Sequence record: PP400777
Length of the DNA stretch: 64,000 nt
From: Escherichia phage JM10
Reading direction: 5' to 3' (one strand)
The notes below the pieces were generated by a model, which was given only the letters and a program-made list of their open reading frames with translations, was not told the DNA's origin and did no database searches. A program made the position numbers and the translations under genes. Shown piece after piece: positions 8,185 through 40,250 of the stretch. Numbering within the stretch: position 1 is the first letter of the stretch; each line of letters begins with the position of its first letter.

Positions 8185-8349
8185 TTTATTTTCCTCTATA
8201 GTAGATGGTTTAATCTTAACACATCTATTGAGGATGTAAACTGTTTTATGAAAATATTTTTGTTTTGAGAGGGGCACAAGGAGATAGTGAAGTGAAGATT
8301 CCAATGGATTATATTAGAAATGAGATAAAGAAGACCAGGCGGCACCTGG

Positions 8350-20182: not shown

Positions 20183-20580
20183 TATTTAGCCTTATATTCA
20201 AGAGTAGGACAGACTTTTTCTTTACGAGCTTTAAGGTATTCACCTATTAATGATTTCTTACGTTCAATAGGCTCAAGTCCATTTTTAATTCGTTCTTGGT
20301 TTTGCGCAATGAGCTCAATTTCTTTATAATATTTTCTGTCGTTATATTTGTCTAACAACCAAGACGGACCAATTACTAACCCGGTAGCAATAAAATCCAT
20401 GACTGCTACAATTAAAATGCCTAAACCAATTGAAGCCGGAACTAATGTCCATAGACTGCTAAAAACAAAGAATTTAGTTAAAATTTCCTGGCAAATGATT
20501 GTGACTGCTGCTAAAATCACAAATCCAATAATTGAAGCAGCCAATACCGGGATTAACGTTTTCCAAAAATAAGCACACAA
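20182..20580 (-). CDS. membrane protein
   Basis: 132 aa with about three hydrophobic helices. Confidence 0.5.
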   Translation of the reverse strand: MCAYFWKTLIPVLAASIIGFVILAAVTIICQEILTKFFVFSSLWTLVPASIGLGILIVAVMDFIATGLVIGPSWLLDKYNDRKYYKEIELIAQNQERIKNGLEPIERKKSLIGEYLKARKEKVCPTLEYKAK

Positions 20581-20664
20581 CGTTTTCGGACGATTCTATG
20601 TACTATTGAACGCGGTATAAAGTTTAAAGTGCCAAGAGTTTTCATTGATAATCATAATAATTCC

Positions 20665-21207
20665 TTATTTCAAAGTTGGGATAATAGAATCGAGATAAGC
20701 TTTAAGAGCAACTGCCTCATCTTTGTCTAATGTAATGATATGTTGACGAAGGTCATCAATTTGGCGAATAACTACGACATCACCATCTTCATAAGAAGGA
20801 TTAACGCCTAGGACTGTTGTATAGTCAGGGCGGTCCTGATTTGTAATAAAAGCATTACGGCATTTAGCCCATTGAAGTTTGGCCTTTTTGGCTGTTTCAG
20901 ATTCCATGAATTCTTTCACCTTAGTGACAAATGTTTTCCAATTATTAATAGAAAAACATTCATCTTCGGTTTCGATATTAACCCCACTATAAAGTCCGTG
21001 ATAAAAACGAACTTGAAGGTCTTCATCAATGTTAATTACAGATGCATGACCCGGTGGATTGAGTTTCAAAATCTTGTCTAGTTCCATAGGAAGAATAGTA
21101 ACAACATCATCTTCTTGCGTCAGAACGTACGCATAACCACGTTTTTCGATACATAAATCACCAAACAACTCAGTCGTTTCAATTACAGTTTTCATATTAT
21201 TCACCAA
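20665..21207 (-). CDS. hypothetical protein
   Basis: 180-aa ORF. Confidence 0.55.
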   Translation of the reverse strand: MVNNMKTVIETTELFGDLCIEKRGYAYVLTQEDDVVTILPMELDKILKLNPPGHASVINIDEDLQVRFYHGLYSGVNIETEDECFSINNWKTFVTKVKEFMESETAKKAKLQWAKCRNAFITNQDRPDYTTVLGVNPSYEDGDVVVIRQIDDLRQHIITLDKDEAVALKAYLDSIIPTLK

Positions 21208-21296
21208 TTAAAGTTTCAACAAAATTCACCAAATCATTCTGACGAGCATCAACCTGATTTCTATAAAAATTAAATAAGATTAGCTTGTTCACAGGT

Positions 21297-21406
21297 CATT
21301 TTACCATACTCGCTTCAATAAGATTCATTACACCATTTACCATGTTATACGTAAACATCGGATAATTGTATTGTATCACAACGTATACGATAAGCAAAAG
21401 TTTCAT
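21297..21406 (-). CDS. candidate small hydrophobic peptide (36 aa)
   Basis: Not in the ORF track; GGAG RBS 6 nt upstream of ATG and a PeSL-like promoter upstream; MKLLLIVYVV…. Confidence 0.3.
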
Positions 21407-21423
21407 TTTGTTCTCCATTTGTT

Positions 21424-21466
21424 TTGGTAGGACTACTATAACATAGTCCTACCAAGTTGTAAACTA
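21424..21466 (-). promoter_or_regulatory. PeSL-like early promoter + stem-loop cassette
   Basis: Minus strand GTTTAC-17-TTATAGT with 10-bp inverted repeat GGTAGGACTA/TAGTCCTACC. Confidence 0.45.
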
Positions 21467-21670
21467 CCGATTGTGTTTTAAATGTTGATAAAGTTCTTCA
21501 ACTTGTTTAGGGTCCAAAACAATTAAGTCATTTTCTTGACGAAGATAAATCCATCCCTTATCCCCAGGACCATTTTTACAAAACATCACCACCATATCAT
21601 CATCTTTAGCGCTTTCAGGTAAAAGTTCAAGTACACCGTCTTCAGATTTTCCAGTATAATCGTAAAGCAT
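21464..21670 (-). CDS. hypothetical small protein
   Basis: 68 aa from the internal ATG with GAGGA RBS. Confidence 0.4.
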   Translation of the reverse strand: MLYDYTGKSEDGVLELLPESAKDDDMVVMFCKNGPGDKGWIYLRQENDLIVLDPKQVEELYQHLKHNR

Positions 21671-21677
21671 AATATCC

Positions 21678-21857
21678 TCACATAATCTCGTTAACATACA
21701 TTTGCAATTCGGTGTGGGCGTCAGCCATCTTTTTCATAGCTCTGTTAATGTCGATGTCTCCATCTTCGCAACCATGAGCATTTTCCCAATCAGATACCGC
21801 ATTAGCGTACTCTTCAATCAAAAACATTAACTTAGAAATTTTTTCTTTACGTGACAT
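21678..21857 (-). CDS. hypothetical small protein
   Basis: 59 aa from MSRKEK…; GAGGAGA RBS; promoter cassette immediately upstream. Confidence 0.4.
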   Translation of the reverse strand: MSRKEKISKLMFLIEEYANAVSDWENAHGCEDGDIDINRAMKKMADAHTELQMYVNEIM

Positions 21858-21861
21858 AACG

Positions 21862-21914
21862 TTCTCCTCTAGTAAGTAAGGTTTACTATAACACAACCTG
21901 AGGAGAAGTAAACT
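21862..21914 (-). promoter_or_regulatory. PeSL-like early promoter; RBS is complementary to the -35/-10 spacer
   Basis: Minus strand GTTTAC-TTCTCCTCaggttgtgt-TATAGT…GAGGAGAA. Confidence 0.45.
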
Positions 21915-21924
21915 GATAGATGCC

Positions 21925-21951
21925 AAAAAGCCCCAACCTTTCGGAAGGGGC
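21925..21951 (-). terminator. rho-independent terminator
   Basis: Minus strand GCCCCTTCCGAAAGGTTGGGGC followed by TTTTT; downstream of rI; identical hairpin at 36551-36572. Confidence 0.6.
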
Positions 21952-21958
21952 TAGTAAA

Positions 21959-22261
21959 TTAGATAGATGTAGGCTCTAATTTTATTTTCATGAACTCAGC
22001 AAATTGTCTGGCAGTTTTTATGCCTTGTTCATGACATTCAAATGCATCATCACAGGGGCTATTTTTGTAATGCTTTGCCATATACTTATAGAATTTTTCA
22101 GAATTCTCGACATTTTGAATTTCAAACAAAGTATATACGTTTTTAATCCCTGATTCCATAAAGTTATCAAAATATGGGTCGATATATGCAGTACCAACGA
22201 TAGGAGTTGTTGCTGCAAAAAACCACAGCATCGCCATGACAGCTATCGCTCTTAAGGCCAT
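21959..22261 (-). CDS. rI: lysis inhibition regulator RI-like (signal-anchored periplasmic protein)
   Basis: 100 aa; resembles my recollection of T4 RI (…DPYFDNFMESGIKNVY…); located next to tk. Confidence 0.7.
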   Translation of the reverse strand: MALRAIAVMAMLWFFAATTPIVGTAYIDPYFDNFMESGIKNVYTLFEIQNVENSEKFYKYMAKHYKNSPCDDAFECHEQGIKTARQFAEFMKIKLEPTSI

Positions 22262-22273
22262 ATAGGCCTCCTG

Positions 22274-22486
22274 TTAATTTTGGCCAGTATTTATTTTTCG
22301 CCTTTGGACGGCCTTAACATCTGTGAGGTATTTTTCCAGCTTGCGCTTGCGTGTATAATCAGCTTTAGAACCAGTTTGACGGATATCCTCGTTTAAATGA
22401 GAAATAGAATGTCCTAATTCTCTTCGGATTTCATCCAATTGGGTTACAGTAAGATTACGAAGTTGTCTTTCGTTTAATTGCTGCAT
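22274..22486 (-). CDS. hypothetical protein (rI.1 position)
   Basis: 70-aa ORF between rI and tk. Confidence 0.5.
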
Positions 22487-22513
22487 ATATACCTCTTGGT
22501 TAGATATTAGTAT

Positions 22514-23095
22514 TTATAACAACCCTGTCAAATCATTCCAATGCTTCCGGCATAATGACACGTATCTATCGGTATCACCAATTTCAATTTGACTGCCATC
22601 TGTAATTGGAAGTCCGTCTTCCGTGACTCTAGCTACCATTGTGGCCTTTTTACCGCAATGACAGACACCTTTAAGTTCAACAAGCTTATCGGCAATAGCC
22701 ATTAATGCTTGAGAACCTTCAAATAGATTACCTTTAAAATCTGTTCGTAGTCCATATGCCATTACCGGCACATTGTATACGTCAACAATACGACTAAGTT
22801 GATACACCTTTTCAGTAGTTAAGAACTGAGCTTCGTCAACAAATACACAATGAATATCCTTTTGTGCTGCAGCCCATTTATAGAATTCAAAGATATCCAT
22901 GTCTTTTGTAATTATATTGGCATCCTGACGAATACCAATACGAGAGACTATTTCACCTTTTGAATCACGAGTATCAATAGCCGGTTTAAGAACTAATACA
23001 CCCATGCCACGTTCTTTATAGTTATGTGCGGCAGTAAGTAATGAAGCAGACTTACCGGCGTTCATAGCGGCATATGTAAAAATTAAACTAGCCAT
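22514..23095 (-). CDS. tk: thymidine kinase
   Basis: 193 aa; P-loop AAMNAGKS and C-terminal zinc cysteines. Confidence 0.9.
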   Translation of the reverse strand: MASLIFTYAAMNAGKSASLLTAAHNYKERGMGVLVLKPAIDTRDSKGEIVSRIGIRQDANIITKDMDIFEFYKWAAAQKDIHCVFVDEAQFLTTEKVYQLSRIVDVYNVPVMAYGLRTDFKGNLFEGSQALMAIADKLVELKGVCHCGKKATMVARVTEDGLPITDGSQIEIGDTDRYVSLCRKHWNDLTGLL

Positions 23096-23104
23096 AAGAG
23101 TCCC

Positions 23105-23287
23105 TTATAGTGAATTCACGTAGTCAATGAGTTCTTGTTCTTTCCTGTCAAATGATTCCATCAATGCGTGATATTCTTCGTCCGTCAAAGGAGCATATTC
23201 ATCGTACGCATTGGTGGCTGCTTGTTCATCCAATAGGTCATGGATAAGTTCGAACAGTTTAGCTTTCTCTTCTTTAGTTAATTTCAT
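23105..23287 (-). CDS. hypothetical acidic protein
   Basis: 60-aa ORF. Confidence 0.4.
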   Translation of the reverse strand: MKLTKEEKAKLFELIHDLLDEQAATNAYDEYAPLTDEEYHALMESFDRKEQELIDYVNSL

Positions 23288-23778
23288 TTAGGTTCCAAAT
23301 CAACAATCACAATTTCTAGTTTAGTGGAATACGTATCTAAAATCTCTTCGATGACATCCCAGTTTCCACCACCAATACCTGCACCAATTCTTGGCATATA
23401 AATTACAGGCTTTGTTATCTTATTCTTTCCGAATTCATTTAATTCTATTATACAATTCATTAAAGCAGAGTACTCAAAATTAGGTCCCGGCTCAAACTGT
23501 GTATAAAGATTAAAGCAATAAGCTTTATGGGTCTTAAAATATTTTTCATAAACCGAATAAGACCCGAGTTTAGACTCATCTCCGAATTCGGTTTGAAGTT
23601 TATCGGCTTCCAGAATTTTTGGATAAGCCTTTGCTAATTGTCCTGCTACACCAGCGCCCATTGTATGAAAACAATTACACCCATGCGCAATATTATTACC
23701 TTTAGAAAACAGGGCGACAATATCGCCCTTGATATAGTTTTTAATCACTTGCTGCAAGTCCTCTAGTATAAGAGTCAA
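23284..23778 (-). CDS. macro-domain protein (ADP-ribose binding/processing fold)
   Basis: 164 aa; macro-like motifs NIAHGCNCFHTMGAGVAGQL and IYMPRIGAGIGGGNW. Confidence 0.6.
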   Translation of the reverse strand: MTLILEDLQQVIKNYIKGDIVALFSKGNNIAHGCNCFHTMGAGVAGQLAKAYPKILEADKLQTEFGDESKLGSYSVYEKYFKTHKAYCFNLYTQFEPGPNFEYSALMNCIIELNEFGKNKITKPVIYMPRIGAGIGGGNWDVIEEILDTYSTKLEIVIVDLEPK

Positions 23779-24088
23779 CTAGGCGGTCCACCATAGAATT
23801 GCATGCTGCCTTATCTTTAGGTTCCGCCACCGAGCATTCTAATATTTGCCATTTTTTATAGTATCTTTTAATTAAGGTAGACGCCTTGAACCTACTAGAC
23901 GCCCCATCTTTTTCTCCGTCTTTATACGCATATAACAATTTTTGTGAAAAATCTACTTTACACTCTTGACTTTTACCACAATAATCAGACGCCGTTCTGT
24001 TTGTATACTCCGTTACATCAGTATATGTAGTATTAGCAAGAGCGTTAAATGAAACCAAGCCAACTATTAAAGCCAACATTTTGGTCAT
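23741..24088 (-). CDS. secreted protein (signal peptide)
   Basis: 115 aa; N-terminal MTKMLALIVGLVSFNALA. Confidence 0.5.
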   Translation of the reverse strand: MTKMLALIVGLVSFNALANTTYTDVTEYTNRTASDYCGKSQECKVDFSQKLLYAYKDGEKDGASSRFKASTLIKRYYKKWQILECSVAEPKDKAACNSMVDRLVDSYTRGLAASD

Positions 24089-24627
24089 TCTTTTATTTCC
24101 AGTAGTTTATTTGATTTAAGGTAATTAGCCTTTTCTAGGACTTCAGAAGCATATTTACTTCCAGCACTTGTCTTCCATCCTGCATTATATGAGGATATAG
24201 CTTTTCTTATATCCCCGTTATGTATATTTAACCAATAAGAAAATTCGATATAAGCCCATCTGGCTGAATTAGACCGCTTAGATAGCATTTTCTTAATTTG
24301 GGCATCAGTCATATTATAACCAAGCTGGTTAATTCTTGCCCTCATTGTCGGTAGATAATTTTGGAACATTCCATACGCATGGTGACCTTTCTTATCTTTA
24401 AGATTAATACCGGCAGATGATTCCTGCCATAGTATTGCGGCCATTATGTATCCAAGTCCTTTCTTATGCATATTTTCATGCGTTTTAAATTTTCCGTCCT
24501 TAGAAAACTGTTCCCCAAACTGATAAGCATAATTCAAGTTATCGAGTTGGACATTACTAAAAGTATGCTCGGAGCTATGTGCTGATAATGAAAGAGCAAA
24601 TAGACCAGCGAGTAGTGCTTTTCTCAT
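24085..24627 (-). CDS. lytic transglycosylase-like secreted protein (vs.1-like)
   Basis: 180 aa; signal peptide; SLT-like motif WQESSAG…AYGMFQ. Confidence 0.6.
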   Translation of the reverse strand: MRKALLAGLFALSLSAHSSEHTFSNVQLDNLNYAYQFGEQFSKDGKFKTHENMHKKGLGYIMAAILWQESSAGINLKDKKGHHAYGMFQNYLPTMRARINQLGYNMTDAQIKKMLSKRSNSARWAYIEFSYWLNIHNGDIRKAISSYNAGWKTSAGSKYASEVLEKANYLKSNKLLEIKE

Positions 24628-24635
24628 GTTTACCT

Positions 24636-25094
24636 CTAGATTTTAATCACTGCTTTAGAAGCTTTTCCTGGTAGTCGTTTATTGTTAATAATAGCCATTC
24701 TGCATTGAAGAGACTTCATTTTGAATGCTGGATTTTCGCGACAAACTGTAAGTCCTAACCAAAGATTTCCATCAGTTATTTCTAAACGGCCTGGGCGATA
24801 TTCGACACCTTCGACAAAATCTTCATCAACATCTGGACGTGCCGGCATTGATAAAAATTCTGCAACTTCTTTAACATGATTTTTTACTTTATGAAATAAT
24901 TCAAAAACGTAATTCTCATCTATTTCTCTCTGGATGGCACGATCTAAGAGATGTTGAGAATACTTGATATGAAAGCCTGGTAGTCCAAGAGACTTTGCAG
25001 CATCTTTTATACTGGCATTTATTTTGCGGAACTCCGTTTCAAAGATTCGACGGAGTTTATTACGGCGGATAAAAACGTCTGAATTGATAGTCAT
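24636..25094 (-). CDS. regB: endoribonuclease RegB-like
   Basis: 152 aa; position and size match T4 regB and the sequence resembles my recollection of it. Confidence 0.7.
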   Translation of the reverse strand: MTINSDVFIRRNKLRRIFETEFRKINASIKDAAKSLGLPGFHIKYSQHLLDRAIQREIDENYVFELFHKVKNHVKEVAEFLSMPARPDVDEDFVEGVEYRPGRLEITDGNLWLGLTVCRENPAFKMKSLQCRMAIINNKRLPGKASKAVIKI

Positions 25095-25100
25095 TTTGAT

Positions 25101-25153
25101 TTCTCCTCTAGTTGACAGGTCTATAGTAACACAACTAGAGGAGAAGTAAACTA
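25101..25153 (-). promoter_or_regulatory. PeSL-like early promoter with 13-bp inverted repeat pairing the spacer to the RBS
   Basis: Minus strand GTTTAC-tTCTCCTCTAGTTGtgt-TACTAT-agacctgt-CAACTAGAGGAGAaatcaaaATG. Confidence 0.5.
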
Positions 25154-25155
25154 CT

Positions 25156-25371
25156 TTATTGATAAAATGGAGTTAAAGCCCAAGATTCTTTAGATACTAT
25201 ATTGGCGAAATGCCTCATCTCTTCGATTTGGCGACGACGCTGGTCAGCATAGTCTTCTTCGCCTTCTTCCTTACAATCTTCAAGGTCTTCTTCAAGATAC
25301 TTTAAGTATTCACTACAAATTTTGTTGACCTTTTCTTGAAAGTCCAATAACCCAGTAATAGTAGAAGCCAT
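25156..25371 (-). CDS. hypothetical acidic protein
   Basis: 71-aa ORF. Confidence 0.45.
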   Translation of the reverse strand: MASTITGLLDFQEKVNKICSEYLKYLEEDLEDCKEEGEEDYADQRRRQIEEMRHFANIVSKESWALTPFYQ

Positions 25372-25636
25372 TAGTATTTTTCCTCAGGTCGAAATACTGC
25401 ACGACATGCCCACATGCTGGCTTCTTTTAGATGTTGCTTAGCATACTTAAGAGCCTGCACTGCATCCATATCTTCTTTGGTTTGTTGCTCTGTTTCATTT
25501 TCTTTCAAGATATATGCTTCTTCAATCAGAGCATCAAACAACAATCCAAGACGGACTTCGGCATCTTTAATAGCGTTCACTTTACCGATTTTATCATCGG
25601 TATGCGGCTTGTAGCCTTTGATGTCTTCAATCGACA
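25371..25636 (-). CDS. hypothetical protein
   Basis: 88 aa from the internal ATG with GAGGAA RBS; trimmed from ORF-track 25371..25805. Confidence 0.35.
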
Positions 25637-25851
25637 TAAGGAATTTCCTCATCAGTGGCAAGGTCATATTCGACCAATTGGATAGGCTCATTAATACCAT
25701 ATCCACGTACAGTGATATCAGTTGACGGATATTTTCCAGTAATATCACCCGTTCTAAATGCTTCAATGAATGATTGCTCGCCTGAGCAACTAAACCAGGC
25801 GGCAAAACATTTTAAAACATCTTCAGACCCTTCTATAATCAATTTAGCCAT
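25627..25851 (-). CDS. hypothetical protein
   Basis: 74-aa ORF abutting the GrcA-like gene. Confidence 0.4.
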   Translation of the reverse strand: MAKLIIEGSEDVLKCFAAWFSCSGEQSFIEAFRTGDITGKYPSTDITVRGYGINEPIQLVEYDLATDEEIPYVD

Positions 25852-26213
25852 TATAGACTCTCAGTAAAGGTACGAGCGATAACGTCGCGCTGCTGTTCCG
25901 GAGTCAGAGAGTTAAAGCGAACTGCATAACCGGATACACGGATGGTCAGCTGCGGATATTTTTCCGGATGCTTAACTGCATCTTCCAGAGTTTCACGACG
26001 CAGAACGTTAACGTTCAGATGTTGACCACCTTCAATTTTAACTTTAGGTTGATGTTCAATTTCAATTTCACGGGCATGCAAACCGTAGAAAATTTCCGGG
26101 TCTACAATAGCGTCTTCTTTAAAAGTCTTAGAGACAATAATCCGGGCTTGAGTACCGTCTTCAAAATAAATAGTGCCTTTATGCGCACCTTCAAGAATTT
26201 GATATGCTTTCAT
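25851..26213 (-). CDS. autonomous glycyl radical cofactor (GrcA/YfiD-like; T4 Y06I-type)
   Basis: 120 aa; glycyl-radical motif [13 protein letters not shown] in a C-terminal segment that appears near-identical to my recollection of E. coli GrcA. Confidence 0.8.
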
Positions 26214-26219
26214 ATAACC

Positions 26220-26528
26220 TCAATTAGAAAATAAATTTATCCAAGTTTTTTCTTTAATCAAAAATGGGTCGGAATTAAACGCCATTAAACTTTGAGTGAT
26301 TAATCCCTTAAATGGCCCATCAATAAATTCCATTTTGAAATGCGGAATACTAGTCATCAACCGTGCATTAGGAGCAGTACAAAGAACCTGCTGCCCTGCG
26401 AACGGACCTTTAGTCAAACGATATCGTTTAGGTTTAAAATGGTAAATCTCGTAATTTTCTACAAGAGCCCTTTTATTGCATACTGGGCTGTTATAACAAT
26501 ATTCAAAAACTTCAATAGTGGTCATCAT
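26220..26528 (-). CDS. hypothetical protein
   Basis: 102 aa from MMTTIEVF…; start overlaps the upstream stop. Confidence 0.4.
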   Translation of the reverse strand: MMTTIEVFEYCYNSPVCNKRALVENYEIYHFKPKRYRLTKGPFAGQQVLCTAPNARLMTSIPHFKMEFIDGPFKGLITQSLMAFNSDPFLIKEKTWINLFSN

Positions 26529-27064
26529 TGCATTCCAATCACAAAAAATTGAGGACGAGCAATACCGCCGATGCAATATTTGCTTTTGCAACAGTGTTGG
26601 ACTGTTTTAATATGGACATTGTAAATCTTATCCATATCAGGAGCTTTAATAGGCTCGTCAATTATGTACAGAATACGAGAAAGCGTTAATCCACGGAATT
26701 TAGAACCTTCATTGCCAATAAAACTACGAACAGAATCAGTAAATAAACGGAATCGAATATCATCGCTAGAATAACGAGAAAATTCTTTTTTAATGTTGCC
26801 AGCAGAAATTTTAGCATAAGCTGAAGTATTAGAAAGAACAATAACAGTTCCGCCATCATACAACCAATTAGCAGCGAAGTTAGTCACAGCAATTGATTTA
26901 CCTGATTGTCTGCCGCCGTCTAAACGAAGTGTACAGTACTGCTTGAGTACATCTTCAAATGGTGGGACATAACCGTTCTTACAAATTTCTTCTACTCTAG
27001 CATCAGAATGGTGTGTAAAAGCATTCATCAGGGATAGATAAGGTCCAGTTAAAAATGTTCTCAT
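26525..27064 (-). CDS. hypothetical P-loop-like protein
   Basis: 179 aa; GGRQSGKS Walker-A-like motif. Confidence 0.45.
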   Translation of the reverse strand: MRTFLTGPYLSLMNAFTHHSDARVEEICKNGYVPPFEDVLKQYCTLRLDGGRQSGKSIAVTNFAANWLYDGGTVIVLSNTSAYAKISAGNIKKEFSRYSSDDIRFRLFTDSVRSFIGNEGSKFRGLTLSRILYIIDEPIKAPDMDKIYNVHIKTVQHCCKSKYCIGGIARPQFFVIGMQ

Positions 27065-27130
27065 TTAGTTTCTCTTTTAGGTTGGGCCATTCCGTGGCGC
27101 ATGAATTGTCCATTTCTGTATTTACCCCTC

Positions 27131-27176
27131 CAAGTAATTATGAATATACTATCACAATTCTAGGAGAAAGTAAACT
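27131..27176 (-). promoter_or_regulatory. PeSL-like early promoter cassette
   Basis: Minus strand GTTTAC-17-TAGTAT…cttggagg. Confidence 0.4.
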
Positions 27177-27177
27177 G

Positions 27178-27480
27178 TTATTTACCTTTAATTACTTTAG
27201 CTGCTTCGATAGCCGCTTGCTGAAGGTCATCCATAGACATACCGAATTTAGAAGCAAAGTTATCAATTTTCTTTTCGACAGCATTCAAAGGCTTTGCCTG
27301 TTTACCTTCATTAGCGCCAGGAAGAGCGAGAATACGCTCTTTGTCAATATAAAGGCTTACAAGTTTCTTACGGTCTTTATCGGACAAATCATGAAATGAA
27401 TGGGCCTTTTTATTTATAGCGGCTTCTAATTTACCTGCACTCACTCGCGCTTCAGTAATAAATTCTTGATAGGTTTTCAT
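27178..27480 (-). CDS. ipII: prohead internal protein II-like (capsid targeting sequence)
   Basis: 100 aa starting MKTYQEFITEA; colinear with my recollection of T4 IPII. Confidence 0.7.
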   Translation of the reverse strand: MKTYQEFITEARVSAGKLEAAINKKAHSFHDLSDKDRKKLVSLYIDKERILALPGANEGKQAKPLNAVEKKIDNFASKFGMSMDDLQQAAIEAAKVIKGK

Positions 27481-27507
27481 GTGTTTCCTTGTTTGTTTTG
27501 ATAGAGT

Positions 27508-27538
27508 AATTATACCATATTAATACTTAAGCGTAAAC
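27508..27538 (-). promoter_or_regulatory. early promoter candidate (GTTTAC -35, TATAAT -10)
   Basis: Minus strand GTTTAC-17 nt-GTATAAT, then AGGAAA RBS and the ipII ATG. Confidence 0.5.
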
Positions 27539-27618
27539 CGTTTAAGCTTTACCGCCAGAAATAATTCCGAAGTTGTTAAAATCATATCCAATATCGTCAA
27601 CATCTACTTTAGGACTTG

Positions 27619-27804
27619 CTACAACATAAGCAATTTCACTACGTTTTGCATAGGTGTTTTGATTTCTTTACCATCGCCACCTAAGAAAGAATACCCATTA
27701 CGTTTTAATGAGCCAAAGTCTTCCGCATCACCAATGAAAGCTTTAACTTTAAATTTAGGACCTTTGGCATCTGCTTCAACGATAAATTCTTGATACATTT
27801 TCAT
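27619..27804 (-). pseudogene. internal protein-like ORF with CTS, apparently truncated or frameshifted
   Basis: 61 aa starting MKMYQEFIVEA; an alternative frame continues to 27542, suggesting a frameshift near 27640-27670. Confidence 0.35.
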
Positions 27805-27917
27805 TTTTCCTTAGTAAATTGATTTACCAAAGTATTTGTACCAAGTCGGGCGTTGAGCAATTTTTTATCTAAGCGTGCTTGACTTATCGCAATGGACGCT
27901 TCGGACGGGTCATAATT

Positions 27918-27970
27918 TCCTCCAAGTAGTTGATGAATGTATAGTATCAAAACCCTTGGAGGAAGTAAAC
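27918..27970 (-). promoter_or_regulatory. PeSL-like early promoter with 9-bp inverted repeat flanking -10
   Basis: Minus strand GTTTAC-tTCCTCCAAGggttttg-ATACTAT-…CTTGGAGGAaatt ATG. Confidence 0.45.
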
Positions 27971-27971
27971 A

Positions 27972-28253
27972 CTATTTTTCTGAAGCGCCTGAAATATATT
28001 TTTCAAGACGTTGTTTCATCAGCGAGCCGTTCTTAGCAATTTCTTCCGGTTTATCGCACATACGCAACAAGGCTTCAAGCTTAACGATATCACTGGTGCG
28101 CTCAAATTTGCGAGTATCTATCTTACTAGCAAGTTCAGAAATACGTGCTAATAGACTTTCAGCTTCAACCAAAGCTGCACCTAGCTTAGTTGCAAATGTG
28201 TCAGTAGCTTCGTTAAGAATAGATTCTGATAAAAATTCACTATATGTTTTCAT
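27972..28253 (-). CDS. internal protein-like (CTS-bearing)
   Basis: [10 protein letters not shown]… from the ATG overlapping the e stop (ATGA); the ORF-track start five codons upstream is inside e. Confidence 0.55.
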
Positions 28254-28738
28254 ATATACGCTTTCCAAGTTCCTGTTTTAAATGTTGAGATTACGCGTTT
28301 CGCGCGATTAGGTGTCTGACGATACCATTTAGATTGGGCTAGATTTACTGCCGCCTCGTCCCAACGTTTCTGTTGAAGCATACGAAGAGAATTAGTAAAA
28401 CCGGCGACGCCTGCTACACCCATTTGGAAGACCATATTGACCAATGCACATCGACGAACCGCATCTAAAGAATCATATACCGGTTTAAGTTTAGCATTAC
28501 CCAAGATTCCGCGAACGGCTTTATCAACGTCTTCATTAAATAGCTTTTCAGCCTCATCAAGGGTAATTGTACCGTTGCATTTACGACCGATAATTCTGTC
28601 AAGTTCAGCTTTAGCTACGGCTAAAGACGGGTTCTTTGTTACTAAATGGCCTATGCCAATCGTCCAAAAGCCTTCAGTGTCTTTATATAAAGTCAGTCTA
28701 AGACCTTCGTCATTACGAAGCATTTCAAATATATTCAT
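28250..28738 (-). CDS. e: lysozyme (endolysin) e
   Basis: 162 aa from MNIFEMLR…; catalytic EGLRL…YKDTEG…TIGIGH region as in T4 lysozyme. Confidence 0.9.
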
Positions 28739-28770
28739 AATACCTCCCACGTTTATAGGAGGTATTTATT
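28739..28770 (-). promoter_or_regulatory. RBS-sequestering hairpin upstream of e with embedded late-promoter-like elements
   Basis: Minus strand AATAAATA-CCTCC-TATAAACG-TGGGAGG-tatt-ATG; CCTCC pairs with the GGAGG Shine-Dalgarno. Confidence 0.5.
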
Positions 28771-28772
28771 AC

Positions 28773-29231
28773 TTATAGGAGGGTAGTGAGCACCTTATAT
28801 AATGATTTGCCCATTACATATTCCCATTGAGAAGGTTTAATTAAAGCGAATGCATCAAATTCAGGAATCTGTCGTCCGTCTGGGAATGTATGATAGGAAT
28901 TACAAACACTGTTTCTGAATTGCTCGTGCTCTACAGGGATGGTATATTGGAACAGATGAATATTCTTATTGTCTGAGTAATGATGTTCACCTAGGTCTTT
29001 CAGGAAGGCAGGGTCATATTGTGTAAACCCAGTTTCTTCTTCGCATTCACGAATAGCGGCTTCAATAGGAGATTCGCCAGGTTCGACACGGCCTTTAGGA
29101 ATATCCCACCGATGGGCTAATGCACCTTTAGGACGAGAACCAGTTACACGCCCCATGAATAATTCTTTATCTTTGGTAAGGAAAATAATACCGGCTGATA
29201 GTTCTTTCACTTTATTTTTCTTACTCATCAT
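28773..29231 (-). CDS. nudE: Nudix hydrolase NudE
   Basis: 152 aa; Nudix box GRVEPGESPIEAAIRECEEETG. Confidence 0.8.
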   Translation of the reverse strand: MMSKKNKVKELSAGIIFLTKDKELFMGRVTGSRPKGALAHRWDIPKGRVEPGESPIEAAIRECEEETGFTQYDPAFLKDLGEHHYSDNKNIHLFQYTIPVEHEQFRNSVCNSYHTFPDGRQIPEFDAFALIKPSQWEYVMGKSLYKVLTTLL

Positions 29232-35912: not shown

Positions 35913-35929
35913 AATATTTTCCTCTGTGG

Positions 35930-35969
35930 TTGATAAGTCTATAATATCATGTCCTTAGAAGAAGTAAAC
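35930..35969 (-). promoter_or_regulatory. PeSL-like early promoter cassette
   Basis: Minus strand GTTTAC-17-ATATTATAGACTTATCAA. Confidence 0.4.
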
Positions 35970-39462: not shown

Positions 39463-40197
39463 TTACCTTAAGATTGTTTCAATTTTAGAATAAAGCTCTT
39501 CTAAAGAGCCGTCGTTTGTAATAACTAAATCGCCTTCTTCAATAGGCAACCCAGCTTCTGTAATATGTTTATCAGTGGATTCCGTACCAGAGCGAACCAC
39601 ATGAATAACTGTAGCACCCATCGCTCTAGCGGTTTCCATTTCATGGACTTGGCGTGTATCGGTTACAATATAGTAATCGAAATCACTTCCAATATAATCC
39701 ATATAGTTTAATGCAAAAAGCTTAACCCAATACATACGGTCAAATAAATTAACGACAACATCCGTACCGAGGGCTTGCATAAGACGGCGGACTGACCATG
39801 TGTCGTTGATATTATTTATAGCTTCACGCAGGACTTCATATGGTTTAATATCTAGATACGAATATCCGCCTTCTAACGATGATAATACTTTAACATTATT
39901 AATCGGTAAATATTGACTTTGCAAATAAATTAGCGCTTCTTCCAATAATTCAATAACATCCAACTTATTGAGATTTAATGGTGTTTCACGGTCATATCCA
40001 ATGCCTTCAAAGTATTCGTATTTCAACTCTGTGAATACATCAGGATTTTCAGCATGCCTACGTCCCCAGGCTATTGCTAGAGCGTCTTTAATTGGATACG
40101 CTAATTGGTATTTTACGGATTTAAAGTTTGAATTGATGTAATCAGCAGTAGTGTCTTTACCGCTACGTTTGATGCCACTTAAAAAGATTAGCTCCAT
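39463..40197 (-). CDS. 1: deoxynucleoside monophosphate kinase gp1
   Basis: 244 aa; P-loop LSGIKRSGKDT; colinear with my recollection of T4 gp1. Confidence 0.9.
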   Translation of the reverse strand: MELIFLSGIKRSGKDTTADYINSNFKSVKYQLAYPIKDALAIAWGRRHAENPDVFTELKYEYFEGIGYDRETPLNLNKLDVIELLEEALIYLQSQYLPINNVKVLSSLEGGYSYLDIKPYEVLREAINNINDTWSVRRLMQALGTDVVVNLFDRMYWVKLFALNYMDYIGSDFDYYIVTDTRQVHEMETARAMGATVIHVVRSGTESTDKHITEAGLPIEEGDLVITNDGSLEELYSKIETILR

Positions 40198-40250
40198 AGG
40201 TTTTCCTCATATAATTTATGAGTGATTATAACATACGGAGCTAGAAGCGA

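Follow-up and report, generated by a model that had tools for sequence, protein, structure and literature searches.

In bacteriophage T4, RNAs that initiate upstream of the genes e, soc, 49 and I-TevI hold the Shine-Dalgarno sequence (SD) and/or the AUG of these genes in base-paired form, while the shorter RNA made from an embedded promoter is translated, as summarized in a 2010 review of T4 post-transcriptional control. Here we analyze a 64 kb stretch of DNA from Escherichia phage JM10 (record PP400777; the window) in which inverted repeats pair the spacer between the -35 and -10 hexamers of an early promoter with the SD of the gene behind it, as upstream of regB. A first-pass annotation of this DNA had named lysozyme (e), 49 and soc of T4 as precedents. 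These precedents are correct, and the review adds I-TevI, but those genes use late promoters. The element in the window is like the T4 class in that the SD lies in a stable helix in the long RNA and the promoter is placed so that its own RNA lacks the 5' arm. It is unlike that class in its promoters, which are early and sigma-70-type with the anti-SD in the -35/-10 spacer, whereas e, soc, 49 and I-TevI have late gp55 promoters (TATAAATA). The timing would also be opposite, since the T4 hairpins delay expression until late, whereas the elements described here are predicted to permit it in the first minutes only. Because the embedded promoters are early and not late, we file the element as a variant of this class and not as a member. 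Judged from its sequence, it can best be seen as an early-promoter form of the T4 promoter-embedded hairpin that sequesters the ribosome binding site (RBS), structurally distinct from the early-promoter stem-loop (PeSL) cassettes.

PeSL cassettes combine an early promoter, a stem-loop, an SD and an ATG, and are known from RB49/phi1, T4/PST and nt-1/KVP40 (Arbiol 2010; Comeau 2014). One RB49 PeSL stem-loop cut lacZ expression like a strong terminator, and in all five published subclasses the stem-loop lies upstream of the start site, with the SD a separate element. The cassettes in the window resemble PeSL in being intergenic units (upstream stop, strong early promoter, stem-loop, SD and ATG) with many repeats and, in three suggestive cases, a possible association with insertions and deletions. 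In PeSL, however, the SD is unpaired and termination or attenuation has been proposed, whereas in six cassettes of the window the 3' arm is the SD itself, lies in the transcribed leader and carries no T-run. RBS-sequestering hairpins are also described for the homing-endonuclease genes Aeh1 mobE and T4 segB, I-TevII and I-TevIII (predicted), where, as proposed here, the RBS of a nuclease gene co-transcribed with upstream genes is sequestered and its translation limited; in the 2010 review's summary of them, unlike the cassettes here, these hairpins are not tied to an early promoter spacer. Neither regB nor denV appears among the inhibitory structures in the same review, although they may be mentioned elsewhere, and the RB69 genome paper never brings up stems or hairpins for its 57 predicted early promoters (Nolan et al. 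2006).

The window belongs to an RB69-like T-even phage of the genus Mosigvirus and shares 98.6% identity with RB69 over positions 23000-27000. The first-pass annotation had claimed three inverted repeats between spacer and SD. All three were found, at the early-type promoters of regB (24636-25094), mobD.2a (21678-21857) and denV, with gene names taken from the RB69 annotation. The genes around the three sites are encoded on the minus strand, and the features of all sites and cassettes below are given in window positions on that strand. Each promoter has the early, sigma-70-type form GTTTAC-N17/18-TAnnnT, and the RB69 genome paper had predicted early promoters at all three sites independently of our scan (Nolan et al. 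2006). The layout is PeSL-like and intergenic, with an upstream stop codon, a sigma-70-like early promoter and the next gene's SD and ATG.

At regB the elements follow one another as GTTTAC - TTCTCCTCTAGTTG TGT - TACTAT - AGACCTGT - CAACTAGAGGAGAA - ATCAAA - ATG. The -35 hexamer (25146..25151; RB69 counterpart Pe:61376, Nolan et al. 2006) is followed within the spacer by the 5' arm, which is the anti-SD (25132..25145). The -10 hexamer TACTAT (25123..25128) falls in the hairpin loop, and the 3' arm (25101..25114) holds the GGAG of the SD, which is also the RegB cleavage motif. The coding sequence of 152 aa begins at ATG 25094 (24636..25094), as supported by the RB69 annotation and by RegB relatives. 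The arms had been noted as perfectly complementary over 13 bp; the match is indeed perfect and its length is 14 nt, and an independent repeat search returned this pair as the top inverted repeat in 20500-29000. The location of the 5' arm between the two promoter hexamers excludes it from the local promoter's transcript, and only read-through RNA contains it. The upstream open reading frame (ORF), a homologue of RB69ORF117c, ends in a stop codon (25156..25158) 4 nt ahead of the -35 hexamer. A terminator scan called none between this stop (25158-25156) and the -35 hexamer, so that upstream transcripts should run on into regB. The RegB enzyme cuts the GGAG motif in early SDs between GG and AG, its own SD included, and RNA secondary structure inhibits it (2010 review). 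The SD context of regB, GGAGAAATCAA, is a partial match to GGAGRAYARAA, the consensus of the RegB/S1 cleavage site with its A-rich tail, and is predicted to be unpaired in the short transcript only.

At denV the -35 hexamer GTTTAC (27965..27970; RB69 Pe:64934, Nolan et al. 2006) is followed in the spacer by the anti-SD TTCCTCCAAG (27955..27964), and the 3' arm CTTGGAGGAA (27917..27926) is the SD. The repeat search found this pair too, with arms of 10 bp where 9 had been noted. The gene behind it is a denV remnant of nine codons (27884..27913, ATG 27913): about 300 bp of the RB69 gene are deleted, beginning right after the promoter/hairpin cassette, which is intact, and RB69 carries the same cassette before an intact denV. 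At mobD.2a the -35 hexamer GTTTAC (21908..21913) corresponds to RB69 Pe:58138 (Nolan et al. 2006), and the pairing is of 8+5 bp, with an outer helix TTCTCCTC/GAGGAGAA and an inner AGGTT/AACCT stem around the -10 hexamer. Its 5' arm (21894..21907) is made of the anti-SD (21907-21900) and the inner arm AGGTT, and its 3' arm (21858..21884) of the inner AACCT, a 9-nt internal loop and the SD (21869-21862), with the ATG at 21857. The 8-bp arm falls under the length cut-off of the repeat search, and 8 bp alone is within chance expectation. By sequence and fold, an intrinsic terminator (AGCCCC..GGGGCU followed by U5; 21925..21952), kept in loci L126-L128, adjoins the mobD.2a promoter upstream. The RNA after the regB stem reads AAAUCAAAAUG, with no T-run, and the stems at the other two sites are followed by CGUUAUG and AUUAUG. 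Since no U-tract follows the stems and the scanner calls no terminator at the three sites, a rho-independent terminator was rejected for these hairpins on sequence criteria.

We compared the two RNAs by their opening cost, defined as the free energy needed to make positions -16 to +3 single-stranded. The read-through RNA was started 80 nt upstream of the -35 hexamer and the promoter-proximal RNA at the 7th nt after the -10 hexamer, a start site placed by promoter geometry. For regB the cost was 18.4 kcal/mol in read-through RNA versus 4.9 kcal/mol in promoter-proximal RNA; the corresponding values were 12.6 versus 5.6 kcal/mol for denV and 11.6 versus 3.5 kcal/mol for mobD.2a. Minimum-energy folds of the three sites place the SD in a 10-14 bp stem in the long RNA and leave it open in the short RNA. 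Across the six sites in the window whose 3' arm covers the SD, the means were 11.4 versus 3.9 kcal/mol, and the read-through values of 8-18 kcal/mol compare with a background median of 5.4 at 46 other minus-strand gene starts. The top three of these 46 are lysozyme e (16.7), gene 1, encoding dNMP kinase (16.5), and gene 49, encoding endonuclease VII (15.3). Genes e and 49 are established T4-type cases and thus served as a positive control, ranking high by the same metric that was used for regB. Their known RBS-sequestering hairpins are present in the window (e, AATACCTCC/GGAGGTATT at 28739-28766; gene 49 at ~12783), and the repeat search of 20500-29000 lists that of gene e as well. The first-pass annotation had argued that read-through transcripts would sequester the SD while local transcripts leave it free. 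The predicted folds bear out the hiding and the release, and the function would follow from them by inference.

A regular-expression scan of the minus strand of the window returned ~24 T4-type early promoters, 23 of them with a downstream SD and ATG. We calculated RNA duplex energies between the segment holding the -35 hexamer and spacer and the segment from -10 to ATG, in cognate and non-cognate combinations of these 23 promoters. The mean was -12.4 kcal/mol with a promoter's own leader versus -8.3 kcal/mol with the leaders of others, and the own-leader mean was reached by none of 20,000 permutations (p~5e-5), which ruled out chance complementarity. In six promoters, with -35 hexamers at 35969, 27970, 27175, 25151, 21913 and 8241, the 3' arm covers the SD and ends 0-6 nt before the ATG. 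All six SDs contain GGAG or GAGG. Ten others (38759, 38384, 38056, 35100, 32292, 30996, 21464, 17077, 7539 and 7114) have a hairpin flanking the -10 hexamer that leaves the SD free, and seven (35385, 33180, 27538, 18831, 18553, 14456 and 13072) show no significant pairing. The suggestion that the arrangement is a general design in this phage was therefore overstated, since spacer-SD pairing occurs at a minority of early promoters, 6 of 23. Opening costs differed little between read-through and promoter-proximal RNA in the -10-flanking group (mean 3.5 versus 3.1 kcal/mol) and in the promoters without a hairpin (4.3 versus 3.1 kcal/mol). The ten -10-flanking hairpins, typically TAGGACTA..TAGTCCTA, enclose the -10 hexamer and end at the start site; their arms vary between copies yet remain complementary, with some G.U pairs, and none has a T-run. 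It is these hairpins, together with those of T4 ipII and ipIII, that match PeSL.

We then asked how the pairing behaves in relatives of RegB, drawn from 43 IMG/VR loci that comprise ~15 distinct promoter/leader lineages. Spacer-SD pairing at regB is kept with differing arm sequences in at least 10 of the ~15 lineages, T4 included. The arms read TTCTCCTCTAGTTG / CAACTAGAGGAGAA in the RB69-like window, TTTTCCTCTTGACTG / CAGTTAAGAGGAGAA in the T4 type, TTTCTCCTCTTTATG / CATAAAGAGGAGAAA in L011, TCTCCTGTAAG / CTTACAGGAGA in L013/L016, ATCTCCTTTTAGT / ACTAAAAGGAGAT in the L018 group, ATCTCCTGTAG / CTACAGGAGAT in the L027 group and ATCCTCATTTG / CAAATGAGGAT in L030, where the SD core itself changes together with its partner. 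In every lineage one arm is the SD, 0-7 nt before the ATG. Beyond the SD core, cognate arms formed 4.44 contiguous pairs versus 1.49 for non-cognate arms, a value that 0 of 100,000 permutations reached. A MAFFT alignment of the leaders was set aside for pair counting because it placed the SD cores out of register, and gap-free strings of arm, linker and arm were built in its stead. With the 5' register taken from each sequence's own best helix, both-sided changes were found in 13 of 16 pairs of the helix. Compensatory cells numbered 44 versus 20.8 +/- 3.4 after shuffling (0 of 500 shuffles reached 44), and the covariation score was 0.361 versus 0.06-0.11 in slid registers. Over 36 distinct regB sequences the mean occlusion was 12.9 kcal/mol in long RNA versus 3.6 kcal/mol in short RNA. 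When the promoter was swapped for that of another lineage, occlusion fell from 12.9 to 7.3 kcal/mol, and the cognate mean was reached by 0 of 20,000 permutations.

For denV, all 28 distinct T4-type promoter/leaders are predicted to occlude the SD in long RNA (mean 15.1 kcal/mol) and to release it in short RNA (mean 3.3 kcal/mol). The anti-SD occupies one of two placements, in the spacer or directly after the -10 hexamer. An example of the second is TAAGAT-GTCCTCCTA...TAGGAGGAC, in which the arm is still upstream of the normal start site. The comparative evidence thus favors the proposed read-through logic at regB and denV, whose orthologues across T4-like phages keep the pairing by compensatory change, but gives the mobD.2a site no deep support: the search for deep homologues returned only close Mosigvirus relatives or ~47%-identical Tequatrovirus genes, and the T4 copy of mobD.2a lacks its own promoter. 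The anti-SD is missing from the most distant relatives of regB and from jumbo-phage relatives of denV, which instead have an intrinsic terminator at the promoter or overlapping it. The fact that different devices lead to the same outcome suggests that insulation from upstream transcription is the selected trait. In the jumbo-phage denV loci L068, L070, L074 and L076, the -35 hexamer lies inside the terminator stem (GGGTTGACTTCGGTCAGCCC plus T-run) and TATAAT follows directly, forming a fused terminator-promoter.

T4 itself carries the arrangement. Its regB hairpin is of 15 bp and its opening cost 18.4 kcal/mol, compared with 15.8 kcal/mol for the experimentally validated structure of T4 e by the same method, and its denV arms are TCTCCTGTAG/CTACAGGAGA. 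The T4 omics papers contained nothing on start sites or read-through of regB or denV. A genome-wide scan of T4 yielded 37 units of early-type promoter, SD and ATG, which we screened for occlusion that is higher in read-through RNA by 5 kcal/mol or more. Thirteen units passed, namely alt.-3, alc, ndd.4, regB, modB, nrdC.8, motB.2, 30.8, gene 1, denV, e.8, 55.6 and mrh.2. The promoter of gene 1 is middle-type and was counted apart, which leaves the property at 12 of 37 early-type units. The units of alt.-3 and alc are a near-identical cassette at two distant loci, GTTTAC AAGTCCCTCGTGTTGTGT TATAGT AGTCTTACT.ACATAACATGAGGA, with the largest long-versus-short occlusion differences of the T4 genome (L130-L133), 18.5 and 16.9 kcal/mol.

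In the window, three further cassettes belong to the SD-covering group. The fourth (27119..27175), GTTTAC-TTTCTCCTAG..., forms a hairpin with three G.U pairs onto CTTGGAGGGG and is near-identical to a cassette found before denV in some T4-like phages (L063), one with a promoter half similar to that of T4 ipIII. Here it stands upstream of vs.8 and precedes a 36-aa ORF whose SD is poorly spaced (~13 nt to ATG), and it looks like a relocated or orphaned cassette. The fifth (8191..8241) lies upstream of the homologue of gene 55.6 (ATG 8184), which shares the property in T4. The sixth and weakest (35918..35969) precedes the homologue of RB69ORF146c (ATG 35912). Homology to RB69 stops at ~35921, inside its 3' arm and leader, and its promoter half resembles the mobD.2a promoter, which fits the PeSL idea of recombination inside promoter cassettes. 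Between 27178 and 28268, three small ORFs start with MKTYQEFI.., MKMYQEFI.. and ..MKTYSEFL.., the N-terminal signature of T4 internal proteins. The content of this internal-protein locus differs from RB69, and 27104-27450 has no RB69 match.

Gene 1 is another observation from the background set. Its hairpin UAGCUCCGUA/UAUGGAGCUA (40197-40245) covers the start codon. The 5' arm is closely followed by an extended -10 element (TGTTATAAT), and a MotA-box-like GCTTCTA stands near -30. It is likewise a case of a promoter inside the 5' arm, here of the middle type, and T4 gene 1 is similar.

We propose that the element is a translational gate within the early promoter that restricts synthesis of the gene product to the burst from its own early promoter, a reading to which we assign a probability of about 0.6. 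The anti-SD is placed directly after the -35 hexamer, inside the spacer, or just after the -10 hexamer in some denV lineages. A polymerase arriving from upstream would transcribe the anti-SD, the SD of the next gene would become the 3' arm of a hairpin of 10-15 bp in the RNA, and the 30S subunit could then not bind. Since no terminator lies upstream of regB or denV, such read-through RNA should exist. The local transcript would start downstream of the 5' arm, so that its SD is free and translated, and the regB RNA would be open to autoregulatory cleavage by RegB; in read-through RNA the hairpin would hide the GGAG from the enzyme. Synthesis of RegB, DenV and similar proteins would then be limited to the first few minutes, when their own early promoters are active, and later read-through RNA could still carry downstream cistrons. 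The structure itself has good support: the arms are complementary, they hold defined positions within the promoter and leader, the folds predict that the SD is hidden and released, and the pairing is conserved with compensatory change. From these we infer the function.

Several points weigh against this proposal. The mobD.2a site stands directly behind a terminator, so that little read-through should reach it, and it lacks deep phylogenetic support. The cassettes at 27970 (denV) and 27175 persist with a deleted or doubtful gene behind them, and the presence of a cassette alone is therefore no proof of current function. Choosing the 5' register by each sequence's own best helix biases the regB pair counts towards structure. 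Among 32 distinct helices, G.U and A.C mismatches number 3 versus 3, too few to separate RNA from DNA pairing. At denV and 27175, a ribosome ending at the close upstream stop might melt part of the stem base. Finally, the published view of T4-type promoter-associated stem-loops is a different one, that of a terminator or attenuator.

If that published view applied here, the hairpins would terminate or attenuate upstream transcription and supply homology for cassette shuffling, and the pairing with the SD would be incidental. Such cassettes are published, the RB49 stem-loop acts on lacZ in a terminator-like manner, and three cassettes of the window lie at rearrangement points: the denV deletion, the relocated cassette at 27175 with its match in L063, and the homology break at 35969, all suggestive cases. 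However, the three hairpins have neither a T-run nor a terminator call, and the five published subclasses keep the SD separate where here the 3' arm is the SD. The covariation at regB and denV, across ~15 lineages, is anchored on the SD, and what its two placements of the 5' arm have in common is SD occlusion alone. A role in recombination can co-exist with SD pairing and leaves the pairing unexplained, and we regard this explanation as unlikely. Slightly less unlikely, in our estimate, is that the hairpins serve mainly to hide the GGAG of internal SDs in polycistronic read-through RNA from RegB, which would keep downstream cistrons intact and make any translation block secondary. Structure inhibits RegB, 16 RegB-resistant T4 GGAG sites are located in stable structures, and every one of the six SDs has GGAG or GAGG. 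Yet in L030 the regB SD, which reads GAGGA and has no GGAG, covaries with its partner all the same, and the hairpin spans the whole SD and its flanks, beyond what protection of one bond would need. Published experiments with T4 denV RNA and motB/denV swaps, as summarized, attributed the efficiency of cleavage to the sequence 3' of GGAG; this suggests that denV resistance is sequence-based, yet the hairpin is kept in every denV lineage. Shielding from RegB is in any case compatible with a translational gate and does not exclude it.

The short distance between upstream stop codons and some of the promoters raises the question of translational coupling, in which translation of the long RNA would need a ribosome that finishes the upstream ORF and melts the 5' arm, and there would be no off-switch. 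The upstream stops lie 1-4 nt before the -35 hexamer at regB, denV and 27175, with the first paired base 2-9 nt after the stop. Unwinding past a stop codon is limited by the ribosome footprint and the reach of its helicase. The regB arm, which begins at the 10th nt after the stop, would be at or beyond the unwinding reach of the terminating ribosome, and orthologues consistently have the -35 hexamer between the stop and the arm. The stop is 48 nt away at 21913 and 22 nt away at 35969, and coupling appears improbable. We hold it still less probable that the inverted repeat acts not in RNA but in double-stranded or extruded DNA, for example as the site of a dimeric protein or by helping the promoter to melt. 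The wobble count described above shows no lean to RNA, and many other promoters of the window have inverted repeats tightly around the -10 hexamer. Loops of 17-30 nt, such as those found here, make poor cruciform substrates, however, and the invariable identity of one arm with an SD close to the ATG is against a DNA-level feature. The alternative denV arrangement moves the 5' arm across the -10 hexamer and keeps the SD pairing, which fits poorly with a fixed geometry of DNA binding.

In T4, early promoters are off 2-3 min after infection, and the mechanism of this abrupt shut-down is not completely understood (2010 review). These promoters shut within minutes while transcription from upstream reads on through the early genes. 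A promoter-embedded anti-SD would confine potentially harmful enzymes (the RNase RegB, the endonuclease DenV, Alc and ModB) to the early burst, simply and in cis, regardless of events at the RNA level, and would tie in with the autoregulation of RegB, as the GGAG is exposed in the short transcript alone. It would also constrain promoter spacer sequence in an unusual way and would give phage engineers a compact promoter-plus-insulator cassette. Since T4 carries the regB and denV hairpins, the idea is directly testable in the best-developed phage system, and the findings suggest that part of the PeSL literature is worth re-reading. More tentatively, and at less than even odds, T-even phages may follow a general rule, to translate only from a gene's own promoter, in all three temporal promoter classes, with an anti-RBS placed in the part of the promoter that is not transcribed. 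If so, the anti-RBS would lie in the -35/-10 spacer of early promoters, in the stretch from the MotA box to the -10 element for gene 1, and in the late-promoter region for e and 49. Pervasive read-through RNA would carry these cistrons silently, with their GGAG shielded from RegB in long RNAs, and some PeSL 'terminators' would be translational insulators. Were roughly one quarter to one third of early genes (regB, denV, alc, modB, alt.-3, motB.2 and others) to follow the rule, it would help to explain why early protein synthesis stops so abruptly.

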